In this document: in pieces, positions 5,529-37,470 of the stretch
How positions within the stretch are numbered: position 1 is the stretch's first letter
How the letters are laid out: the number at the start of each line of letters is the position of its first letter
Source: an uncultured archaeon
GTDB lineage: Archaea; Iainarchaeota; Iainarchaeia; JAADDC01
Assembly: GCA_964451455.1 (NCBI GenBank)
Contig: CAYVHT010000002.1
Location: 1 to 49,805, forward strand
Direction: 5' to 3'
Length of the DNA: 49,805 nt
Notes under the pieces: generated by a model
What the model saw: only the letters and a program-made list of their open reading frames with translations
Told to the model about the DNA's origin: nothing
The model's database searches: none
Translations under genes and position numbers: made by a program

Positions 5529-7865
5529 CTACCCCCTCCCCCACCTCTTCGCCAGCTCCTGATACTCCTGAATCTGCTCAGGAGTGAGGGAGGGTTTCAC
5601 CTTCTTTAGTGCTTCCTCGAAGTGCTTCATGCGCACAGCATCTATGTGCTTCTTGCCCCCCTTGATCGCCTCGCGTATCGCTGCCATTCCCGCTTCGCGG
5701 CAGACTGCGGCTATGTCTGCGCCAGTGTACCCCTCTGTTCTCTTGGCCAGTTCGCGCAGGTCCACATCGTCCGCCAGCTTCATGCCTCTCGTGTGGACTT
5801 TGAATATTTCGTATCGTCCTTCCTCGTTCGGAGGTGGCACGAAGATTAGCTTTTCTAGCCTGCCCGGACGGAGCAGCGCCGGATCTACCAGGTCTGGCCT
5901 GTTGGTTGTTGCTATGACCACTACGTCCTTCATCTCTGCCACACCGTCCATCTCGGACAGCAACTGTGCAACGATTCTCTCCGTGACTCTGTTTGTGTCA
6001 CTGCCTCGGACCGGCGCTATGGCGTCAATCTCATCAAAGAACACAATGCTGGGCGCCACGAGCTTTGCCCTGCGGAATATCTGGCGCACGGCCTTCTCAC
6101 TCTCACCCACCCACTTGCTCAGTATCTCTGGGCCCTTGATTGCAATGAAGTTGGCATTTGCCTCGTTGGCCACCGCCTTTGCTATGAGTGTCTTGCCCGT
6201 TCCAGGAGGACCGTAGAGCAGTATTCCTCGTGGTGGTTCAATCCCTGCCTCTTTGAAGAGCTCGGGATACTTCAGTGGCCACTCTATCGCTTCTCGGACC
6301 TCGTTCTTCACGCTCTCTAGGCCACCGATGTCATCCCAGCGGACCTTTGGGACTTCTACCATTACCTCTCGCATGGCGGAAGGCTCAACACGCTTGAGGG
6401 CGTCAAGGAAGTCCTGATACTTCACACTCAACGACTCGAGGACTTCCTTTGGCAGCGGGGACTCACCCGCTTTCTTTATATCTGGTATTGCGCGACGCAG
6501 GGCTATCATGCCTGCTTCCTTGCAGAGGGCAGCCAGGTCCGCTCCCGTGTAGCCGACGGTGAGATCTGCGATCTCTGCAAACATTTCATCGCGCAACGCA
6601 TCTTCAAGCTTTCTCTTTTTCTCTTCTGGCAGGTCTTCGGCGAGTTTTCTTGCCTCTTCTAGCGTGTTTGCTTTCGTTATCTTTTCATAGTCTTTGTCTT
6701 TCTCTGCCAGTCGCTCTGCCACTCGTTTCACTGCTGCTAGGTCGTAGTAAACGTCCAGTGGCATCTTGCGGCTGTGGATCTTTAGAATTTCTATTCTGCC
6801 CTCGCGGTCGGGTACGCCTATTTCTATCTCTCTGTCAAATCTCCCGGGCCTGCGGAGCGCTGGATCTATATCATCTGGCCTGTTCGTCGCGCCTATGACT
6901 ATTACGTCCCCCCTGCTCTTCAGACCGTCCATTAGGGTTAGGAGTTGCGCCACGATTCTTCTCTCCACATCTCCCTTCGTTTCCTCGCGCTTCGGCGCTA
7001 TGGCATCTATCTCATCTATGAAGATAATCGCTGGTGCGTTCTTCTGTGCCTCCTCAAATACCTTCCTCAGGTTCTCTTCGGACTGGCCGTAGTACTTGCT
7101 CACGATCTCCGGCCCGTTTATTGTCAGGAAGTGCGCGTTCGCCTCGTTGGCCACGGCCTTTGCCAGGAGTGTCTTTCCTGTGCCAGGGGGACCGTAGAGG
7201 AGCACACCCTTGGGCGGTTCAATGCCCAGTCGCTTGAACACCTCCGGGTGGCGGAGGGGTAGCTCTACCATCTCGCGAATGAGTTCAATTTCTTTCTTTA
7301 GGCCGCCTATGTCTTCATAGGTCACGTCGCTCACGTGGGCCTGTACCGGTTTGTCTGATATGCGCACCTTTGTCTTCTCTGTTATGATTACTGGGCCTGC
7401 GGGCTTCGTCTTGGCGACCACGAAGGGCACGGCGAGGTATTGATATCCGTAGGGAATGTACGTCTGGACTGCATCTCCTTGTATTACTGGTGTATTAAGC
7501 AGAAAGTCCTTTATCTCCGTGCTATAGTCCAGTATCTCCTTGGGATACTCACCCTCTGGCGGCGCTAGGAGCACTTCCGTTGCCGGTTTAGCTTCTACCT
7601 TCTCCACATTAACCATTTCGTCTATGCCCACGCCAGCATTCTGCCTGAGCGTTCCATCCATGCGGATAATGTTGGGGTTCGCATACTCATCGTCTGGTGC
7701 GAGTCTAAGCGCCTTCGCCACCGTTTCTTTCTCTCCCTTGATGAGTATGACGTCTCCCTGTTTTAGCCCTAACTCGTCAAATATGACTGCAGGAATGCGC
7801 GCCACCTTTCTCCCAACGTCTCTATCATAAGCGCGTTTTACCTTGAGCGTAACCATATTTTTCAC
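5529..7865 (-). CDS. cdc48: Cdc48/VCP-type AAA+ ATPase (two AAA modules), paralog 1
   Basis: 778 aa. GPPGTGKT occurs twice (Walker A); Walker B as IIFIDEID and IVFFDEID; N-domain MVTLKVK...[11 protein letters not shown] 7865 (alternative ATG 7856). Confidence 0.95.
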
Positions 7866-10828: not shown

Positions 10829-11450
10829 AAGGGTTCTGGATGCGTGGTCTGCCCAAAGCGCTCTCAGGGACGTTGTTCCTTTCGTTCCATCCATTCTTAC
10901 AAGGGACGTGGAGGAAGCGCTATCCTTTGCGCGCGACTATGGTTATCCCGTTGTCTTGAAGGCTGTTTCCGACCAGATCGTGCACAAGACAGATGCCGGT
11001 GCGGTGGTGTTGAACGTATCTGATGACGACGCGCTTCTTCATCACTTCTACTCGCTCCAACGCACTTTCAATGCGCCCATCCTTGTTCAGAAGCAGGTTT
11101 CTGGTGTAGAACTCTTTCTTGGTGGGAAGCAGGATCCACAGTTTGGCCCAGTAGTGCTTTTTGGGCTGGGTGGTATCTTTGTTGAGGTATACAAGGACGT
11201 TTCCGCCCGTGTTGCTCCCTTCAGCCCAGAAGAAGCGAGAACTATGTTTTTGGACCTCCGCGGTAAGGAGATATTAGAGGGCGCCCGTGGTGTCCGCGTG
11301 AATCTTGATGCCCTCGCCAGTATCGTCTCCAGATTCTCGGAGTTCCTTGCTCAGCACCCCGAGTACCTGGAGGTGGATCTGAACCCGATTTTCGCCACGC
11401 GGGACGGGATCTACGCAGTGGACGCGCGTATAGTTTTACGCGGGAGCTAG
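10812..11450 (+). CDS. ATP-grasp domain protein resembling ADP-forming acetyl-CoA synthetase beta subunit
   Basis: ARDYGYPVVLKAVSDQIVHKTDAGAVVLNV..., FGPVVLFGLGGIFVEVYKDVS and LEVDLNPI are typical of the ACD beta / ATP-grasp_5 region. No alpha subunit is adjacent. Confidence 0.6.
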   Translation: MSSLAKRVLDAWSAQSALRDVVPFVPSILTRDVEEALSFARDYGYPVVLKAVSDQIVHKTDAGAVVLNVSDDDALLHHFYSLQRTFNAPILVQKQVSGVELFLGGKQDPQFGPVVLFGLGGIFVEVYKDVSARVAPFSPEEARTMFLDLRGKEILEGARGVRVNLDALASIVSRFSEFLAQHPEYLEVDLNPIFATRDGIYAVDARIVLRGS

Positions 11451-13565
11451 GAACCCGTGACGAGGTTCAAATATGTCTCCATCCCTCTTCAGTCGCTCTA
11501 TGATGTCCTTCACCTCGTCCATATCCATATTGTAGCTGCTCGCGGCTTCTTCAATCACGTCGTCAATAGGCACCATATCCGTGTCCAAGCACTTTGCTCT
11601 GATTATATTTAGCACGATCTTGGCTTTCTCCCTCTTGCTCTTTGTCTCTCCAGTGGTCAGGACGTCGAAATCAATGGCCCCCGTCTCTGGATCCTTGAGA
11701 ACTTCTTCCATAGATGCTTGCGCCAGGCGTATTGCTCTGTCAGCGTCTTCTCCAGTTACTTTGTTGGACAGCCGAACCCTTGCAGATGCCTCCGCCAGTC
11801 GGATAAGCGCCTCTAGCTGTCTCGCGGTCGTGGGTACTGTATTTTGTTTCTTTCCGAGCTTGCGCAGGTTAACGTAGAAATCTATGATCTTGTCCATTGC
11901 TTCTTTCGTCAGCTCGGGGAAGACGTGGGTGCGCGCGTATGCGATGTATTTCCGCAATAGCTCTATATCTATGGCTGGCTTTACGTGCTTTTCGGCCTCT
12001 TCCACCTCTTCAGCTGTCAACTCTTTGTCCGTGCCCATCTCGTATGCAATTCTTTTCTCTCCTGCGAGGTGCGTTTTCAGTATGTGCTCAGCGATTTTTC
12101 TGTCCCTGTCTTCGTCCAACTGTTCTTTTACGATGAACATGAGGTCAAAACGGGACAGGATCGTCGGCTCTATGTTTATCTGCTCTATAGGGTTCTGATA
12201 CGGGTCGAATCTACCCCTCTTTGGGTTTGCAGCGGAGAGGATGGCCGTATCTGCCTTGAATGTAGTTACTATGCCTGCTTTGGCCACGCTGATGGTCTGC
12301 TGCTCCATAGCTTCATGTAGCGCCGCCCTGTCCTTCTGATCTATCTTCTCGAACTCGTCCACTGCCGCAATGCCTCCAGACGCAAGTACCAATGCTCCTG
12401 CCTTTATTACCCATCCACCTTCACCCATCTCGTCTTTCTCGGCCGTGGCCGTAAGCCCTGCACCGGACGCAGTTTTTCCAGCCACGTATATACTCTTGGG
12501 CGCTATTTTCGCGGCATGCCTTAGGATCTGCGACTTACCAGTACCCGGGTCGCCCATGAGGAGTATGTGTATGTTCCCGCGTATGTGCGTTCCGTCTGGC
12601 AGGTCTTTTTTTACACCGCCAAAGAGTTGGAGCGCTACTGCCTCTTTGATGTCGTCGTGGCCGTAAATTGTCGGAGCTATGGATCTACGGAGCTTGTCGT
12701 AAATCTCGGGATCCTGCGCCAATTTTTTGATCTCCTCTATTTCTTCAGGTGTCGGTTCTAGCTCTTCAAACTCCTTCTGCGTGGGTTCGACCCACAGCGC
12801 GTCTATGTACTTCCCATAGACCGTTCTTCTTGTATCTGGCTGGAGCAAGCGAAGCACTCCCACCACGTTTACCCTGTCCCCTGGCTTTACCTTGTTTGTC
12901 AGATCTCCTTCCAAGTATATGTCTATGAAGCGTGCCTGCTCTCCGCCGCGGAGGTATTCTATGGGCTCTTGAATCTGTATTCTTTGGAAATCCACCCATA
13001 TGGACTGTTCTGGCAGGAGCTCGAAATCTCTGCTGCCGCAAACGCAGACAGGCGGTTTCTTCAGCTTCGGGCCTTCTTGCAGGACGTCATAGGTCCTCCC
13101 ACACTTTCTGCACATCCATTTGGCTACTTTTAGCTTTGGGAGAACCATTGTGGTCTGGCGAACCACACCTTCCGCTGCGATGATCTTGCCTATGTAGTCT
13201 GAGGTTATATTTCTGACGAGGAGTTTCCTTTCGTCTGGAATGTTTGTAAGGCGCACGCGCAGCTTCATGTTTTCAATCCCTGGTATTTCTATACGTCCTA
13301 ACGCGTACTCCATTGCGTCCAGATATTGGTCGGGGTTATCTAGAAGCGCGTCTGCCAGCTCGTAGTCAAAGCTCTCGAGCTTGGCGAAGTCCACAACGAT
13401 ACTCACGGCGTCTGGGTGTGTTGCTATGTATTCTGTGAGTTCTTTCTCATATACGACGCGGAAGAACTGCTCGAACTTGTCCACGATTTCCGAGCTGATC
13501 TCTGATTCGTCCGTATTTGGTGTTGCATCGAAGTTCTCCACGATGTCCTGGTCTCCATCATCCAC
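11436..13565 (-). CDS. mcm: MCM replicative helicase
   Basis: 709 aa. Zn-ribbon CRKCG...CVCG, Walker A GDPGTGKSQ, Walker B IAAVDEFEK, arginine finger SRFDL, C-terminal winged helix. Confidence 0.95.
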   Translation of the reverse strand: MDDGDQDIVENFDATPNTDESEISSEIVDKFEQFFRVVYEKELTEYIATHPDAVSIVVDFAKLESFDYELADALLDNPDQYLDAMEYALGRIEIPGIENMKLRVRLTNIPDERKLLVRNITSDYIGKIIAAEGVVRQTTMVLPKLKVAKWMCRKCGRTYDVLQEGPKLKKPPVCVCGSRDFELLPEQSIWVDFQRIQIQEPIEYLRGGEQARFIDIYLEGDLTNKVKPGDRVNVVGVLRLLQPDTRRTVYGKYIDALWVEPTQKEFEELEPTPEEIEEIKKLAQDPEIYDKLRRSIAPTIYGHDDIKEAVALQLFGGVKKDLPDGTHIRGNIHILLMGDPGTGKSQILRHAAKIAPKSIYVAGKTASGAGLTATAEKDEMGEGGWVIKAGALVLASGGIAAVDEFEKIDQKDRAALHEAMEQQTISVAKAGIVTTFKADTAILSAANPKRGRFDPYQNPIEQINIEPTILSRFDLMFIVKEQLDEDRDRKIAEHILKTHLAGEKRIAYEMGTDKELTAEEVEEAEKHVKPAIDIELLRKYIAYARTHVFPELTKEAMDKIIDFYVNLRKLGKKQNTVPTTARQLEALIRLAEASARVRLSNKVTGEDADRAIRLAQASMEEVLKDPETGAIDFDVLTTGETKSKREKAKIVLNIIRAKCLDTDMVPIDDVIEEAASSYNMDMDEVKDIIERLKRDGDIFEPRHGFLAPA

Positions 13566-13619: not shown

Positions 13620-13961
13620 TTACTGTGCTATGGTTTGATTTTTCTTCTCCCGTAAGTATGGCTTCCTCCGCCTCGCTCCACATGCAAGGCATATGTATTC
13701 CACGTGAGGCTGCGGTTCCGGCTTGAGACGGATAATTACATTTTCTCCCGGGATCCAGAAGCTGTTACACTTCTTGCAGAATCGGTATTTCCACTCTTCC
13801 GGGATCGGAACGTTGTATCTCTGCCCTATTTTCCTTGCCAGCCACACGTATCTTCTCGCTCGCTCTGGGTGCTCCCTTGCGTTCTTCTCTGCTAGCTGGA
13901 AGAGCCTAACCATCCGTTCTATAGCAATTTTCTGTATCTTTTTCTTCTCCCACTTGCGCAC
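13620..13961 (-). CDS. rnp4: RNase P protein component 4 (Rpp21/Rnp4)
   Basis: KKKIQKIAIERMVRLFQLAEKNAREHPERARRYVWLARKIGQRYNV, plus Zn-ribbon FCKKCNSFW...CLACG. Start reassigned to in-frame GTG 13961 (113 aa). The 245-aa track ORF would overlap bud32 by about 350 nt on the opposite strand. Confidence 0.8.
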   Translation of the reverse strand: MRKWEKKKIQKIAIERMVRLFQLAEKNAREHPERARRYVWLARKIGQRYNVPIPEEWKYRFCKKCNSFWIPGENVIIRLKPEPQPHVEYICLACGARRRKPYLREKKNQTIAQ

Positions 13962-13982
13962 GTATCCATTTTCTTCATTCTC

Positions 13983-13988
13983 TTTAAA
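13983..13988. promoter_or_regulatory. single palindromic TATA element (TTTAAA) shared by divergent rnp4 and bud32
   Basis: Exactly 21 nt separate TTTAAA from GTG 13961 (minus) and from GTG 14010 (plus). No other AT-rich box lies in the 48-nt spacer. Confidence 0.45.
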
Positions 13989-14009
13989 CGGTTCTTCTCC
14001 CCTTGCTTT

Positions 14010-14615
14010 GTGGAGCTCATAAAGAAGGGTGCGGAGGCGGAACTCTACAGGATTATGTATAATGGTCGCCCCGCGGTGCTCAAGCGCAGAATCCCGAAGC
14101 GCTACCGCGTGCCCGAGCTTGACGAGCGGATACGGAAGACGCGGACGCGGAGGGAGGCGAGACTGCTTGAAAGGGCCCGCCGTGTCGGTGTCCTCACTCC
14201 AGAAGTTCTTTCCGTGGACGACAAGCGTATGGAGATCGTTCTCGAGTTCGTGGAGGGTGAGAGGGCCAAAGAGTATCTTCTGCGCACCAGAGACATTAAT
14301 CTCATGCGAGATGTTGGAGAGTTTGTGGCCCGTCTCCATAAGAACAACATCGTTCACGGAGATCTTACGACTTCCAACATCATCCTCTCTCCGAAGGGCA
14401 TATACTTCCTAGACTTTGGTCTTGGAGCGGTTTCTGACTCGGTGGAGGACAAGGCTGTGGATCTCGTGTGCTTTGAGAAGTCCTTCATTGCCACACATTC
14501 TGACATCGCTGAGGAAGGGTGGGCAGCCTTCCGCGAGGGCTATTCAGTTTACTCTGAATCTGATATCGTCTGGAAGCGTGTAGAGCAGGTGAAGAGACGA
14601 GCACGTTACCTCTGA
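14010..14615 (+). CDS. bud32: Bud32/PRPK atypical kinase (KEOPS subunit), stand-alone
   Basis: GAEAELY...VLKRRIPKRYRVPELDERIRKTRTRREARLLERA...IVHGDLTTSNIIL...YFLDFGL. Confidence 0.9.
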   Translation: MELIKKGAEAELYRIMYNGRPAVLKRRIPKRYRVPELDERIRKTRTRREARLLERARRVGVLTPEVLSVDDKRMEIVLEFVEGERAKEYLLRTRDINLMRDVGEFVARLHKNNIVHGDLTTSNIILSPKGIYFLDFGLGAVSDSVEDKAVDLVCFEKSFIATHSDIAEEGWAAFREGYSVYSESDIVWKRVEQVKRRARYL

Positions 14616-16860: not shown

Positions 16861-16946
16861 CTATCTCATATTATCTGCTGTCTTCTTTGTTTCTCGCTTC
16901 GTTCTTGTGTATCTGGCTATTGCTTGTCACTCACAGTAATTAGAGG

Positions 16947-17021
16947 CGGGCCCGGGGGGATTCGAACCCCCGACCTTCGGGTCCGAAACCCGACGCGCTG
17001 TCCAGGCTACGCCACGGGCCC
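16947..17021 (-). tRNA. tRNA-Arg(UCG): tRNA-Arg (anticodon UCG), no intron
   Basis: Minus-strand reading: GGGCCCG TG GCGT-AGCCTGGACA-GCGC G TCGGG-TTTCGGA-CCCGA AGGTC GGGGG-TTCGAAT-CCCCC CGGGCCC G. Confidence 0.9.
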
Positions 17022-17171
17022 AACCGCCGTCCCAGTTGACGTGACGGTGAGTAGGACATTCACTGCGTTCAGCCCCACACCCCGCCGGCTGTGCGTCCGA
17101 CCGAGCGGATGAGAGTGTCGGACCCGCTCGCGCTCCACCGAAGCATTCGGTGCAGGCTACGCCACGGGCCC
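17022..17171 (-). other. GC-rich 150-nt leader of tRNA-Arg containing a partial tRNA-like module (acceptor/D-arm copy, D-loop hairpin, CCG-anticodon-like arm) without its own T-arm
   Basis: 17153-17171 is an exact 19-nt copy of 17003-17021. On the minus strand it is followed by the hairpin CACCGAA-TGC-TTCGGTG, then GAGCGCG, AGCGG-GTCCGAC...CCGCT and CGGTC. No TTCGAAT-type loop and no second CGGGCCC acceptor strand are present. Confidence 0.5.
17153..17171 (-). repeat. 19-nt exact direct repeat of the tRNA-Arg 5' end (partner 17003-17021)
   Basis: caggctacgccacgggccc occurs at both positions, 150 nt apart. Confidence 0.95.
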
Positions 17172-17215
17172 GCTACTCTGCTAAAGCATATAAATGACGG
17201 AGTGTTTATATCTGC

Positions 17216-18526
17216 ATGCAGCGACGGGGTCAGACGAATGTAGAGTATCTTTTGCTCACAGGTGGCGTCATTCTCGTGGCAGTAGTTGGTGGGTATTATG
17301 CAGTTTCTGCCACGTCTAACGCATTTCACGAGCTGAATTCTGCTGCTGGCGGAGGAAGTACTGTTATTACGCCACCCGTCTCGGATATGCCCCCCAGCAT
17401 CACGTCGTTTACCGTGAATCCAACATCTGGCGACATTAGCACGACGTTCAACATCTCTTGTAGCGCAAGTGATGATCACGGTATATCTTCCATTACTCTC
17501 TATGACGGCTCTAACGCGATTCATTCCTGCTCGTCGTCTCCCTGTACATATGCCACAAATTTATCATCTGGCACTCACAGTATCTCCTGCAAGGTGACGG
17601 ATACTAGCGGGCATACAGTTTCCGCGACTCCGATTAGCGTCACCGTTTCTACAACTCCTCCTGACACAACTCCGCCTACTGTTAGTGCCAACGTAACGGA
17701 TCTTGGGTCTGGCCAATATACTCTATCCTGCACTGCGTCTGACGCTAGTGGAATATCTTCTGTTACTGTTATACTTGATAATAGTCCCGAAAAGCACTGT
17801 TCGTCTTCCCCCTGTGCGCAGACCGTTACTGTTTCCGCGGGCAGTCACGAGTTGAATTGTGTTGCGGAGGACAGGGCGGGGAACACGAATTACGCAATCA
17901 AGTCCTTTTCTTATACTCCGTGCACCGATGAATGTACGTCTGGTTCTGTTCAGTTCCGCTGTGACGGTAACGTACTCCAGAGACGTTCTTGCGGCAACTT
18001 TGACTCCGATTCGTGTACTGAGTGGTCTTCTTGGTCCGACGTTAATAACTGCGACGACTATGACGGTAAATACGGATCGGAGTACCGGGACTATTACTGT
18101 GACTCTGCAACGCATAGCTGCAAGTACTCGGTCACGTGCACCGATGAATGCACTTCGGACCAGAATCGCTGCAACGGTAGCGTTTTCCAGGTCAGCAAGT
18201 GTGGCAACTATGATTCGGATCCCTGTCTTGATTATGGCGGGTGGCAGGATGTGAATAACTGTGATGACTACGATGGCTGGTATGGAAATGAGTATCACGA
18301 CTACTCTTGTGATACTACGTCTTCAACCGGGTGTTCTTACACCGTGACGCAGACATGTTCTGACGAGTGTACTGAAGGAAATTCTAAGGCCATTTTGTGC
18401 CCGAAATGGGTATGCCAGCATCTTCCTGGGCTTCCAGGGTGCCACTGGAAGCTGAATTGGGTTATATGTGGATATAAGCACTGCAAGACTACCTGTGACT
18501 CCGATCCGTGCACCGAGTGGTGTTGA
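17216..18526 (+). CDS. large pilin-like/adhesin-like protein with class III signal peptide, two Ig-like repeats and three Cys-rich modules
   Basis: N-terminus MQRRG/QTNVEYLLLTGGVILVAVVGG. Two repeats of about 85 aa share SC.ASD..GISS.T...HCSSSPC. Two modules of about 72 aa begin CTDECTS... (nt 17921 and 18137), followed by a truncated third (CSDECTEG...CDSDPCTEWC). Confidence 0.75.
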   Translation: MQRRGQTNVEYLLLTGGVILVAVVGGYYAVSATSNAFHELNSAAGGGSTVITPPVSDMPPSITSFTVNPTSGDISTTFNISCSASDDHGISSITLYDGSNAIHSCSSSPCTYATNLSSGTHSISCKVTDTSGHTVSATPISVTVSTTPPDTTPPTVSANVTDLGSGQYTLSCTASDASGISSVTVILDNSPEKHCSSSPCAQTVTVSAGSHELNCVAEDRAGNTNYAIKSFSYTPCTDECTSGSVQFRCDGNVLQRRSCGNFDSDSCTEWSSWSDVNNCDDYDGKYGSEYRDYYCDSATHSCKYSVTCTDECTSDQNRCNGSVFQVSKCGNYDSDPCLDYGGWQDVNNCDDYDGWYGNEYHDYSCDTTSSTGCSYTVTQTCSDECTEGNSKAILCPKWVCQHLPGLPGCHWKLNWVICGYKHCKTTCDSDPCTEWC

Positions 18527-36120: not shown

Positions 36121-36356
36121 TAGCCGCAAAATCGGCTAGCGCTTCGCACCGACTGCGTCGGGCGCACCGGGATGTAATCCCGGAGCCGCGAGGCCGGCTG
36201 CTCCACAGCCGACCACACACTCTTCTTTGCTTCTTATGCGTTTTTATAGTGGCCGATAGCAGGGTGCTGAAAGCACCCTCTGTCACGTTAGCCAGGATGG
36301 CGGCTGACCGCCATATCGGTTAACGCTGGCGCGCGGCCGGCCTTGCGGCCGACTAC
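36121..36356. ncRNA. GC-rich, hairpin-dense non-coding block (one or two unidentified structured RNAs)
   Basis: Perfect or near-perfect hairpins at 36121-36138, 36149-36161, 36167-36183, 36192-36214, 36261-36279 and 36297-36314. Possible closing helix 36247-36255 / 36346-36355. No credible ORF. Strand and family undetermined. Confidence 0.4.
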
Positions 36357-37231: not shown

Positions 37232-37470
37232 GGGCAGCGACCCGTAGGCCGCCTTCTGTTCTTGGTGGCATTGGACTGAGCGGCAACGCCTTGCACCCGT
37301 CCGGAGGCCGTTTCACCTTCCCCCGCTTCTCAGCTCTCTTACGGTCATCCGCTCCACGGGGAAAGTGTCGTTTCTGCTCCTCCGGCGCTCCTCTCGGAGC
37401 GGGGGTGTTCCCCTTTGTGCTGTGGGTGGGCGGACCTTCCTCCCTCTGGGGGGCCACCCGGTCGCTACCC
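37232..37470 (-). ncRNA. rnpB: RNase P RNA (about 239 nt, compact form)
   Basis: Minus-strand reading shows GGGAGGAAGGTCCGCCC (CR-I, compare GAGGAAAGUCC), GTAAGAG, GGTGAAACGG, GCAAGGC and AACAGAAGGCGGCCTA (CR-V, compare ACAGAAnnCGGCUUA). Terminal P1 pairing is GGGTAGCGACC / GGTCGCTGCCC. TATA-like TTTATACATAA lies about 25 nt upstream. Confidence 0.85.

Follow-up and report, generated by a model that had tools for sequence, protein, structure and literature searches.

A conserved hairpin cassette between duplicated tRNA-Arg 5' ends in an uncultured archaeon of the Iainarchaeota

In an uncultured archaeon (GTDB lineage Archaea; Iainarchaeota; Iainarchaeia; JAADDC01), the intact gene for tRNA-Arg(UCG) is preceded by a GC-rich leader that opens with an exact copy of the tRNA's own 5' end. 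We examined this leader within a stretch of 49,805 nt from assembly GCA_964451455.1 (contig CAYVHT010000002.1, positions 1 to 49,805), hereafter the window. An earlier note on the same DNA had read the leader as a partial second tRNA, either a decaying tandem duplicate or a tRNA-Arg(CCG) that borrows the T-arm and acceptor of the gene downstream. We find that two copies of the tRNA 5' end flank a hairpin cassette that is conserved and covaries. For an identical tRNA there are both filled and empty sites, and the cassette occurs at several tRNA-Arg paralogues. The lineage also has related inserts with duplicated tRNA 3' ends. Our preferred reading, for which we put the chances at about even, is that region 17022-17171 is a small cassette of GC-rich hairpins, non-coding and flanked by two direct 19-nt tRNA-Arg copies, that it arose as an insert by duplication of a tRNA terminus, and that its transcript is a leader removed by RNase P.

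A duplicated tRNA 5' end brackets a conserved, covarying cassette

ARAGORN predicts a single tRNA in this part of the window, spanning 16945-17021, and the duplicated end, copy A, begins 150 nt upstream of the start of the intact gene (Table 1). Copy A (GGGCCCGTGGCGTAGCCTG) contains the 5' acceptor strand, U8 and G9, the 5' strand of the D-stem and the beginning of the D-loop. In a scan of the window that permitted up to three mismatches, this 19-mer has two exact occurrences, with 0.01 matches expected and two matches in none of 100 shuffles. The 150 nt from copy A to the tRNA are 67% GC, compared with 51% for the whole window, and hold no AT box, which bears out the earlier observation that none lies directly 5' of the tRNA. 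No RNA sequencing run was found to contain the locus. Vent metagenome contigs, which break at tRNAs and contribute strain variants only, include one with a plus-strand G to T substitution at 17156, inside copy A, and another that carries two 1-nt indels, one insertion and one deletion, immediately 5' of it (17171-17175); the substitution means that the identity of copy A to the tRNA is not strictly kept.

Copy A lies directly behind the sole promoter-like AT boxes on the tRNA side. The TTTATAT listed earlier as the only TATA-like element there (plus-strand letters of box A) is real, but not the only one, as a second AT box (box B) stands 16 nt from copy A. Archaeal TATA spacing from box A predicts a transcription start near 17181. 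Box B is probably the TATA box of a divergent gene for a class III signal peptide (pilin-like) protein, because it lies ~25 nt before the plus-strand ATG at 17216; that gene appears to be leaderless, its TATA box (17188-17194) interleaved with the tRNA promoter. As no other promoter-like box lies between copy A and the tRNA, leader and tRNA-Arg most likely form one transcript, in agreement with the earlier proposal.

The locus was compared across the CarS neighbourhoods of relatives, with CarS identities from 93% to 61%. The closest CarS homologues come from metagenome-assembled genomes (MAGs) labelled Candidatus Micrarchaeota, Iainarchaeum or Diapherotrites, and the locus is present in hydrothermal-vent metagenomes. 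The 75-nt tRNA-Arg(UCG) is 100% identical in the window and in loci L001, L003, L005 and L007. At empty sites the tRNA stands directly behind the same double AT-box block (L003, 75% CarS identity; L005/L006, 65%; L011, 63%), and at filled sites a homologous leader stands between promoter and tRNA (L001, 93%; L007/L008, 66%). The promoter block GATATAAA(C/T)ACTCC...TTTATAT, directly 5' of the tRNA in L003 and L005, is found 5' of copy A in the window. The leader opens with the first 19 nt of the tRNA in the window and the first 17 nt in L007, and it is this copy, not the real tRNA, that is promoter-proximal; as the earlier note had it, the upstream element begins with a duplicate of the tRNA's 5' end, which here takes the position that the tRNA itself holds in relatives lacking the cassette.

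Conservation of the leader, which the earlier note had asked to be compared in relatives, is thus found at some loci and not at others: the window leader is homologous to those of L001, L007, L014 and L016 (0/100 shuffles each), and L003, L005 and L011 have none. Copy A measures 17-20 nt in L007, L014, L016 and L027. It is partial in L001, the closest relative, where GGGCCC is missing, helix P1 (below) is broken and the leader is ~100 nt longer. The segment from H1 to GCGGGT is 84-100% identical between genomes, against a baseline of 50-65% for tRNA trailers, and the cassette, even in parts for which no tRNA could serve as donor for gene conversion, keeps 84-93% identity among genomes in which the rest of the intergenic DNA is saturated. 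Between tRNA-Gln and tRNA-Arg, which are 85 nt apart in the window, L001 carries an open reading frame (ORF) of 168 aa (7171-7677, minus strand) with a weak winged-helix match (HVO_A0261_N, HTH_24), and hence another indel at the same hot spot.

The individual elements named in the earlier note are all present on the minus strand where it had placed them, including the exact 19-nt copy, the 7-bp hairpin, AGCGG...CCGCT and GTCCGAC/GTCGGAC, with GAGCGCG at 17129-17135. Across modules the cassette runs in the order H1, GCGC, GCGGGU, H2, GCACA and then variable hairpins. Its conserved core comprises copy A of 17-20 nt, H1 (CACCGNN-UGC-NNCGGUG), G(G/A)GCGC, two variable nt, GCGGGU, the variable stem of H2 and (G/A)CACA, followed on the 3' side by a variable stretch of 21-170 nt with more hairpins. 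The UGC loop, GCGC, GCGGGU and GCACA are invariant unpaired motifs, and (G/A)CACA is present in all six of the window, L001, L007, L014, L016 and L027 modules. The covariance-model match to the window stops at 17090. Beyond it, the architecture of H3 can be read by eye in the sequences of L001, L007, L016 and L027 as well, and H4 is common to the window and L001 only.

H1 and H2 are covarying stems. The pairing was assessed in a hand-checked alignment of five modules (window, L001, L007, L014 and L016) and in a seven-module alignment (A4), to which L027 and L030 were added via the model and which leans towards the model it was fitted to. Among the five sequences 98% of cells are paired, compared with 34-49% when the partners are slid; over both alignments the figures are 95-98% and 31-49%. 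Four of the seven H2 pairs have changed on both sides with pairing kept (C-G to G-C twice, A-U to G-C and C-G to U-A). For H1, the five-sequence alignment gives one pair changed on both sides and one G-U, and the seven modules give four of seven pairs changed on both sides. The total over the seven modules, eight pairs with changes on both sides, was reached in 2 of 500 shuffles. The G-U pair in H1, found in L007 and L014, is formed on the tRNA strand, and G-U pairs occur on that strand only.

Minimum-energy folds of the window, L007, L014 and L016, and likewise the RNAalifold consensus, contain P1 and a set of D-like pairs (GCGC with GCGU), which together with H1 form a rod. P1 and the D-like pairs never vary, and covariation is therefore evidence neither for nor against them. 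Formation of P1 precludes H2, and the two folds are almost equal in energy. When the whole precursor was folded with a nearest-neighbour model, in which tRNA tertiary structure is ignored, the minimum-energy fold at four loci pairs the 3' acceptor strand with copy A and not with copy B, by 2-7 kcal/mol; in the B fold, copy A is locked in P1.

Table 1. Features of the tRNA-Arg(UCG) locus and of related genes in the window.
Feature	Coordinates	Strand	Match or basis
tRNA-Arg(UCG), intact, 75 nt	16947-17021	minus	ARAGORN; Rfam tRNA, 66 bits
Copy A, exact duplicate of tRNA-Arg nt 1-19, left direct repeat	17153-17171	minus	
Copy B, first 19 nt of intact tRNA-Arg, right direct repeat	17021-17003	minus	
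Insert between direct repeats, 131 nt, GC-rich, body of 5' leader	17022-17152	minus	
H1, perfect 7-bp hairpin CACCGAA-UGC-UUCGGUG, UGC loop invariant	17136-17152	minus	
Linker GAGCGCGAGCGGGUCC	17120-17135	minus	
GCGC in linker, invariant, pairable with GCGU of copy A	17133-17130	minus	
GCGGGU in linker, invariant	17127-17122	minus	
CGGGUCC, pairing with GGGCCCG of copy A as helix P1, 7 bp including one G-U	17126-17120	minus	
H2, GUCCGAC, 15-nt loop, GUCGGAC	17095-17123 (17117-17123 with 17095-17101)	minus	
CCG triplet, 'anticodon' of the earlier note, within H2 5' strand	17121-17119	minus	
GCACA, single-stranded conserved tail 3' of H2	17090-17094	minus	
H3, stem, GA, mini-hairpin, GAA, closing stem (GGGGCU GA ACGCAGU GAA UGUCCU)	17053-17076	minus	
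H4, hairpin CCGUC-11 nt-GACGG, just 5' of tRNA	17027-17047	minus	predicted folds
AT box A, ATATAAA on tRNA strand, candidate TATA box of leader-tRNA transcript	17211-17205	minus	
AT box B, TTTATAT on tRNA strand	17194-17188	minus	
Divergent neighbour, 436 aa, class III (archaeal pilin-type) signal peptide and Ig-like domains	17216-18526	plus	Class_IIIsignal, Big_7
RNase P RNA gene, archaeal	37233-37469	minus	Rfam, 117.9 bits

Cassettes and inserts at other tRNA genes

We searched GTDB species genomes and JGI metagenomes by pattern and located the cassette at further tRNA genes. In the MAG that carries L007, a second module (L014) lies 5' of tRNA-Arg(GCG), between an intron-containing tRNA-Trp and the tRNA-Arg, and from H1 to GCGGGT the UCG and GCG loci are identical (31/31). 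A second MAG has a module 5' of its tRNA-Arg(GCG) (L016, the same locus as L020), a look-up anchored on ProRS returned another tRNA-Arg(GCG) locus with a divergent module (L027), and an orphan module (L030) stands behind a tRNA-Gly(UCC) with no tRNA-Arg downstream. A covariance model of five modules scores 84-94 bits for the window, L001, L007, L014 and L016, and it also picks up L027 (31.7 bits) and L030 (32.3 bits). Bacterial pattern matches at L013, L018 and L019 were rejected as chance hits within coding sequence that lack the hairpin.

At L009/L010 (7117-7192, minus strand) the syntenic gene is an intact tRNA-Arg(CCG) that differs at three positions from the tRNA-Arg(UCG) of the window, an evident anticodon switch within a near-identical tRNA-Arg gene family. 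Its leader consists of at least 96 nt of GC-rich hairpins, and the cassette probably precedes this tRNA-Arg(CCG) gene too; both contigs end within this leader, consistent with an assembly break at a repeat.

Upstream of the modules at tRNA-Arg(GCG), at a distance of ~20-40 nt and in the same orientation, the tRNA-Trp(CCA) genes of L014 (3683-3826, minus strand), L016/L020 and L027 (2065-2207) contain an intron with C/D-box-like motifs (GAUGA...CUGA) and were overlooked by ARAGORN in default mode. A tRNA-Trp intron with a C/D box is a known arrangement in archaea.

Related inserts accompany tRNA 3' ends. A scan for duplicated termini took in the 45 tRNA predictions of the window and every locus, many of them redundant. 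It found the 5' end repeated at six tRNA-Arg loci and the 3' end at two, L020 (Arg) and L022 (Gln). In L020 (1330-1515), tRNA-Arg(GCG) is followed by a 167-nt insert and then by the 3'-end repeat TTCGAATCCCCGCGGGCCC; in L022 (4078-4226), tRNA-Gln is followed by a 129-nt insert and the repeat TTCGAATCCGGGCGGGGCTA. These repeats cover 19-20 nt of the tRNA 3' end, starting from the T-loop TTCGAA, and the tRNA-Arg(GCG) of L016/L020 has both its 5' and its 3' terminus duplicated. The L020 and L022 inserts are homologous (score 71, 0/100 shuffles), the reverse complement of the L020 insert matches the L009 leader (33/37), and the last 25 nt of the L007 leader and the L022 insert, each of which abuts the second repeat, agree at 22/25 positions. 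By eye, a terminal hairpin CCGGCCAAA.AA..TGGC can be read as common to L014 and L020.

In the window itself, the trailer of tRNA-Gly(GCC) (36121-36225, plus strand) is a GC-rich run of hairpins of ~105 nt that ends in ...GACCACACA and contains a degenerate copy of that tRNA's T-arm (CCGGG-ATGTAAT-CCCGG). It is similar to the L009 tRNA-Arg(CCG) leader and to part of the L001 leader (0/100 shuffles each). A dispersed family of 'hairpin plus CACA' elements, resembling repetitive extragenic palindromes, was rejected as a genome-wide repeat, with 10 sites in the window and ~11 in shuffles.

These distributions bear on the simplest account of the leader, namely that it is an unconstrained, immobile remnant of a local tRNA-Arg tandem duplication or of a deletion in a tandem pair, and that loci resemble each other only through recent common ancestry and gene conversion with the tRNA. 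The identity of the 5' copy to the tRNA would fit this account, as would the collinear short matches AGCGCG and CGGGU after H1, the decayed copy in L001 and the degenerate T-arm copy in the tRNA-Gly trailer, which points to partial tRNA duplicates being common here. We nevertheless regard it as unlikely, given a cassette 84-93% identical between genomes saturated elsewhere between genes, compensatory changes that preserve the pairing of H1 and H2, the recurrence of the same cassette at UCG and GCG loci and after a tRNA-Gly, and similarity to the tRNA that is not significant past nt 19. The 'decaying tandem duplicate' of the earlier note is therefore right as to a partial duplicate and wrong as to simple decay, because the cassette is kept across genomes with ~65% CarS identity and stands at other tRNA-Arg genes.

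The leader as a candidate tRNA

On the present searches, region 17022-17171 is not a tRNA module and encodes no hidden tRNA-Arg(CCG). ARAGORN finds no tRNA in the leader, and Rfam 15 returns nothing in 17022-17215 at the gathering threshold and neither a tRNA nor any other family there at an E-value limit of 10. A relation of the leader to tRNA nt 20-75 was rejected, the similarity not being significant (345 of 500 shuffles reach the same level). The 'U-CCG-A' anticodon-like loop of the earlier note dissolves on comparison: no seven-nt anticodon loop with a conserved anticodon is kept across the related modules, and the triplet, CCG in four of seven, GCG in L001 and GGG in L007 and L014, lies in the 5' strand of the covarying stem H2. 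The closing of a D-stem is upheld, in that the GCGC able to do so is kept in five related modules. That no second T-arm or 3' acceptor strand exists is correct for the T-arm, which is absent from the module, and incorrect for the acceptor, for which CGGGTCC (17126-17120) pairs with GGGCCCG in the minimum-energy fold, directly after the D-like region.

Splicing fares no better. The split and multi-intron check that the earlier note had called for was run as a scan of five precursors for the bulge-helix-bulge (BHB) motif with flanking helices (hBHBh'), and no motif is common to the loci. A perfect hBHBh' occurs in L001 only, around H1, and its product would not be tRNA-like. Excision of the stretch from copy A to copy B was likewise rejected, as the palindromic 4-mer in the repeat and the flanking helices that it requires are both absent.

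These results leave it highly improbable that the module is the 5' part of a tRNA-Arg(CCG), spliced in cis to the T-arm and 3' acceptor downstream. The idea draws on the acceptor 5' strand, the closable D-stem and, in the window, L016, L027 and L030, a CCG with U before it; furthermore, the syntenic tRNA-Arg(CCG) of L009 shows that anticodons do switch in this gene family, and some DPANN archaea possess splicing endonucleases of broad specificity (PMC3239211). As a split or 'borrowed T-arm' tRNA-Arg(CCG), however, it is unsupported, because no tRNA is detected, no BHB is common to the loci and similarity past nt 19 is insignificant, and also because the L001 copy, lacking GGGCCC, cannot supply an acceptor strand and the L030 module has no tRNA-Arg behind it. 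The cassette also precedes GCG genes, where 'borrowing' yields no new isoacceptor.

Split and tri-split tRNA genes and multi-intron tRNAs are known from Nanoarchaeum equitans and Caldivirga/Thermoproteales (review PMC4090602). The present locus resembles them in belonging to a reduced-genome archaeal lineage and in placing a tRNA 5' portion next to the promoter, followed by GC-rich structured sequence. It differs in lacking a BHB and a conserved anticodon, and no isoacceptor is known to be missing that it would have to account for; a complete tRNA stands in cis, and the 5' piece duplicates the tRNA and does not complement a 3' half.

A guide RNA of the H/ACA or C/D type was rejected as well: boxes, pocket and kink-turn (K-turn) are all lacking, Rfam gives no match, and H2 is a plain hairpin despite the ACA after it. 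Complementarity of the leader to rRNA or tRNA above chance was not found, the longest complement to 23S rRNA, 10 nt, being within the shuffle range.

Origin, processing and possible function of the cassette

We propose that the cassette entered the locus through an event that duplicated a tRNA terminus. A small element may have integrated or recombined there, or the cassette may have spread from one near-identical tRNA-Arg paralogue to another, using the 5' copy and the tRNA body as homology arms; scarless removal could follow from recombination between the two repeats. Transcription would proceed from the AT box at 17211-17205. The leader would then fold on itself into the rod of P1, D-like pairs and H1, with H2, H3 and H4 after it; copy A, being held in the rod, would be kept from pairing with the 3' acceptor strand in place of the genuine 5' end. 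A cut by RNase P between 17022 and 17021 would release an ordinary tRNA-Arg(UCG) and no second tRNA.

The window encodes an RNase P RNA (Table 1), and its gene 13620-14357 corresponds to the Rpr2-family gene of relatives. The RNase P RNA gene is just 237 nt long yet spans the full Rfam model, and may be a shortened form. The H2 loop UCAUCCGCUC (17103-17112, minus strand) is a 10-nt perfect complement to RNase P RNA nt 116-125 (37345-37354); we rejected this pairing as chance because 22 of 500 shuffles reach 10 nt and the loop is not conserved in L001. A helix between leader and trailer (17052-17044 with 16937-16929, 8/9) was dropped, not being conserved in L001.

Entry by integration would fit the form of the locus. 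As in an attachment (att) scar, a direct repeat brackets the insert with the tRNA intact on one side, and related genomes show the empty site (L003, L005/L006 and L011). Scars of the SSV/pT26-2 type are alike in that a repeat of a tRNA segment, extending to its exact terminus, brackets foreign DNA beside an intact tRNA, with empty sites elsewhere; their repeats measure ~40-51 bp (PMC7253208). Here the repeats are 17-20 nt, and the 74-230 nt between them lack any gene, an integrase included. A parent element was not found, and the insert is a conserved covarying hairpin cassette. Known archaeal integrases mostly use ~40-50 bp at the tRNA 3' half; integration at the 5' end is rare, and tRNA-Arg genes are frequent targets (PMC7253208). 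A casposon at the 3' end of tRNA-Pro, with a target-site duplication of 14-15 bp (PMC5137440), offers a second archaeal likeness, a long target duplication taken from a tRNA end; casposons, however, are large and carry Cas1, PolB and terminal inverted repeats, none of which is seen here. A miniature inverted-repeat transposable element (MITE) or other DNA transposon was rejected, as terminal inverted repeats and a target-site duplication of 2-10 bp were not found.

Several points weigh against our proposal. Firstly, the window and the syntenic loci contain no integrase or recombinase ORF, domain or fragment, and neither a parent element nor a copy is found in IMG/VR, the INPHARED phages or the PLSDB plasmids. 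The insert ends, compared by eye, show no terminal inverted repeat, and each duplication spans 17-20 bp. For known archaeal integrases, such short repeats (17-20 nt) placed at a tRNA 5' end would be atypical (PMC7253208). The right ends common to the other inserts have no homologue at the right end of the window leader, and partial tandem duplication in place, with later gene conversion, could look the same. Secondly, the invariance of P1 and the D-like pairs leaves the sequestration of copy A without covariation support, and the 3' strand of P1 and H2 overlap by 4 nt. The comparison is limited to seven modules, of which a single genome supplies two, and A4 is fitted to the model. Finally, conservation in loops and tails (UGC, GCACA), together with G-U pairing on the tRNA strand, hints that the RNA is selected for more than keeping clear of the tRNA, which favours the functional alternative that follows.

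It is possible, and we take the idea seriously while thinking it rather less probable than not, that the leader is itself a structured functional RNA and the duplication only its evolutionary origin. Such an RNA might be a mimic of the tRNA-Arg 5' half or acceptor stem, freed by RNase P (and by RNase Z where a tRNA lies upstream), that binds a tRNA-Arg-specific or general RNA-binding protein. Alternatively, it might tune maturation of tRNA-Arg in cis, through a switch in which P1 opposes H2 and copies A and B vie for the 3' acceptor strand. Covariation of H1 and H2 would be expected of such a molecule, and so would the invariant unpaired UGC loop, GCGC, GCGGGU and GCACA and the confinement of G-U pairs to the tRNA strand. 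The GC content, 67% within a 51% GC hydrothermal-vent genome, resembles that of tRNA and rRNA. The cassette is kept across lineages with ~65% CarS identity even though its repeats ease loss, and the exclusive, nearly isoenergetic alternatives P1 and H2, along with the competition between A and B in whole-precursor folds, would suit a switch. The cassette is, however, dispensable, as identical tRNA-Arg(UCG) genes do without it in L003, L005 and L011; copy A of L001 lacks GGGCCC and its P1 is broken; and a strain carries a substitution within copy A at 17156. No Rfam family, C/D boxes or H/ACA pocket were found, and related hairpins occur in tRNA trailers, one of them inverted, which resembles mobile DNA more than one RNA gene.

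Known tRNA-linked small RNAs include dicistronic transcripts of a tRNA and a C/D box small RNA (sRNA), and the C/D box guide in the tRNA-Trp intron. The leader is like these in being structured, non-coding and co-transcribed with a tRNA, with ends that RNase P or RNase Z would set, and unlike them in lacking C/D boxes, an H/ACA pocket, a K-turn, an Rfam match and target complementarity above chance.

A broader proposal, which we rate as doubtful, combines the two lines of thought. DPANN archaea with Iainarchaeum, Diapherotrites and Micrarchaeota labels would carry undescribed miniature elements at tRNA termini that duplicate 17-20 nt, and the RNA of the tRNA-Arg version would be a conserved mimic of a tRNA half or acceptor stem, working either as a folding switch (P1 versus H2, A versus B) or as a trans-acting decoy that controls tRNA-Arg maturation.

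The surrounding genes are MCM, Rpr2, Bud32, S15, S3Ae, CarS, a small exosortase-like protein, tRNA-Gln and the convergent tRNA-Arg, with the class III signal peptide protein, Nre and type IV pilus genes beyond the latter; the window also carries a 23S rRNA (Rfam). The product of 17216-18526 has two cysteine-rich repeats in its C-terminal half (CTDECTS...C...NFDSDxC). MCM contains an intein in L009, L012 and L024 (1154-1212 aa, with Intein_splicing and LAGLIDADG domains) and lacks one in the window (11436-13565, 709 aa), L001, L003 and L007.

Overall, the object described here is an undescribed variant of tRNA-targeted insertion or of tRNA-linked leader RNA. A tempting false lead, a split tRNA-Arg(CCG) with a cis-shared exon, is removed, and in its place stands a hairpin cassette, both conserved and covarying, that accompanies duplicated tRNA termini in an archaeal lineage of which little is known. 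Duplicated tRNA ends of this kind break metagenome assemblies, as at L009 and L010, where the contigs end in the leader, and can send the search for split tRNAs astray. Should the cassette prove mobile, it would represent a new way to target tRNA genes without destroying them; if its RNA is functional, it would be a new tRNA-linked leader motif absent from Rfam.

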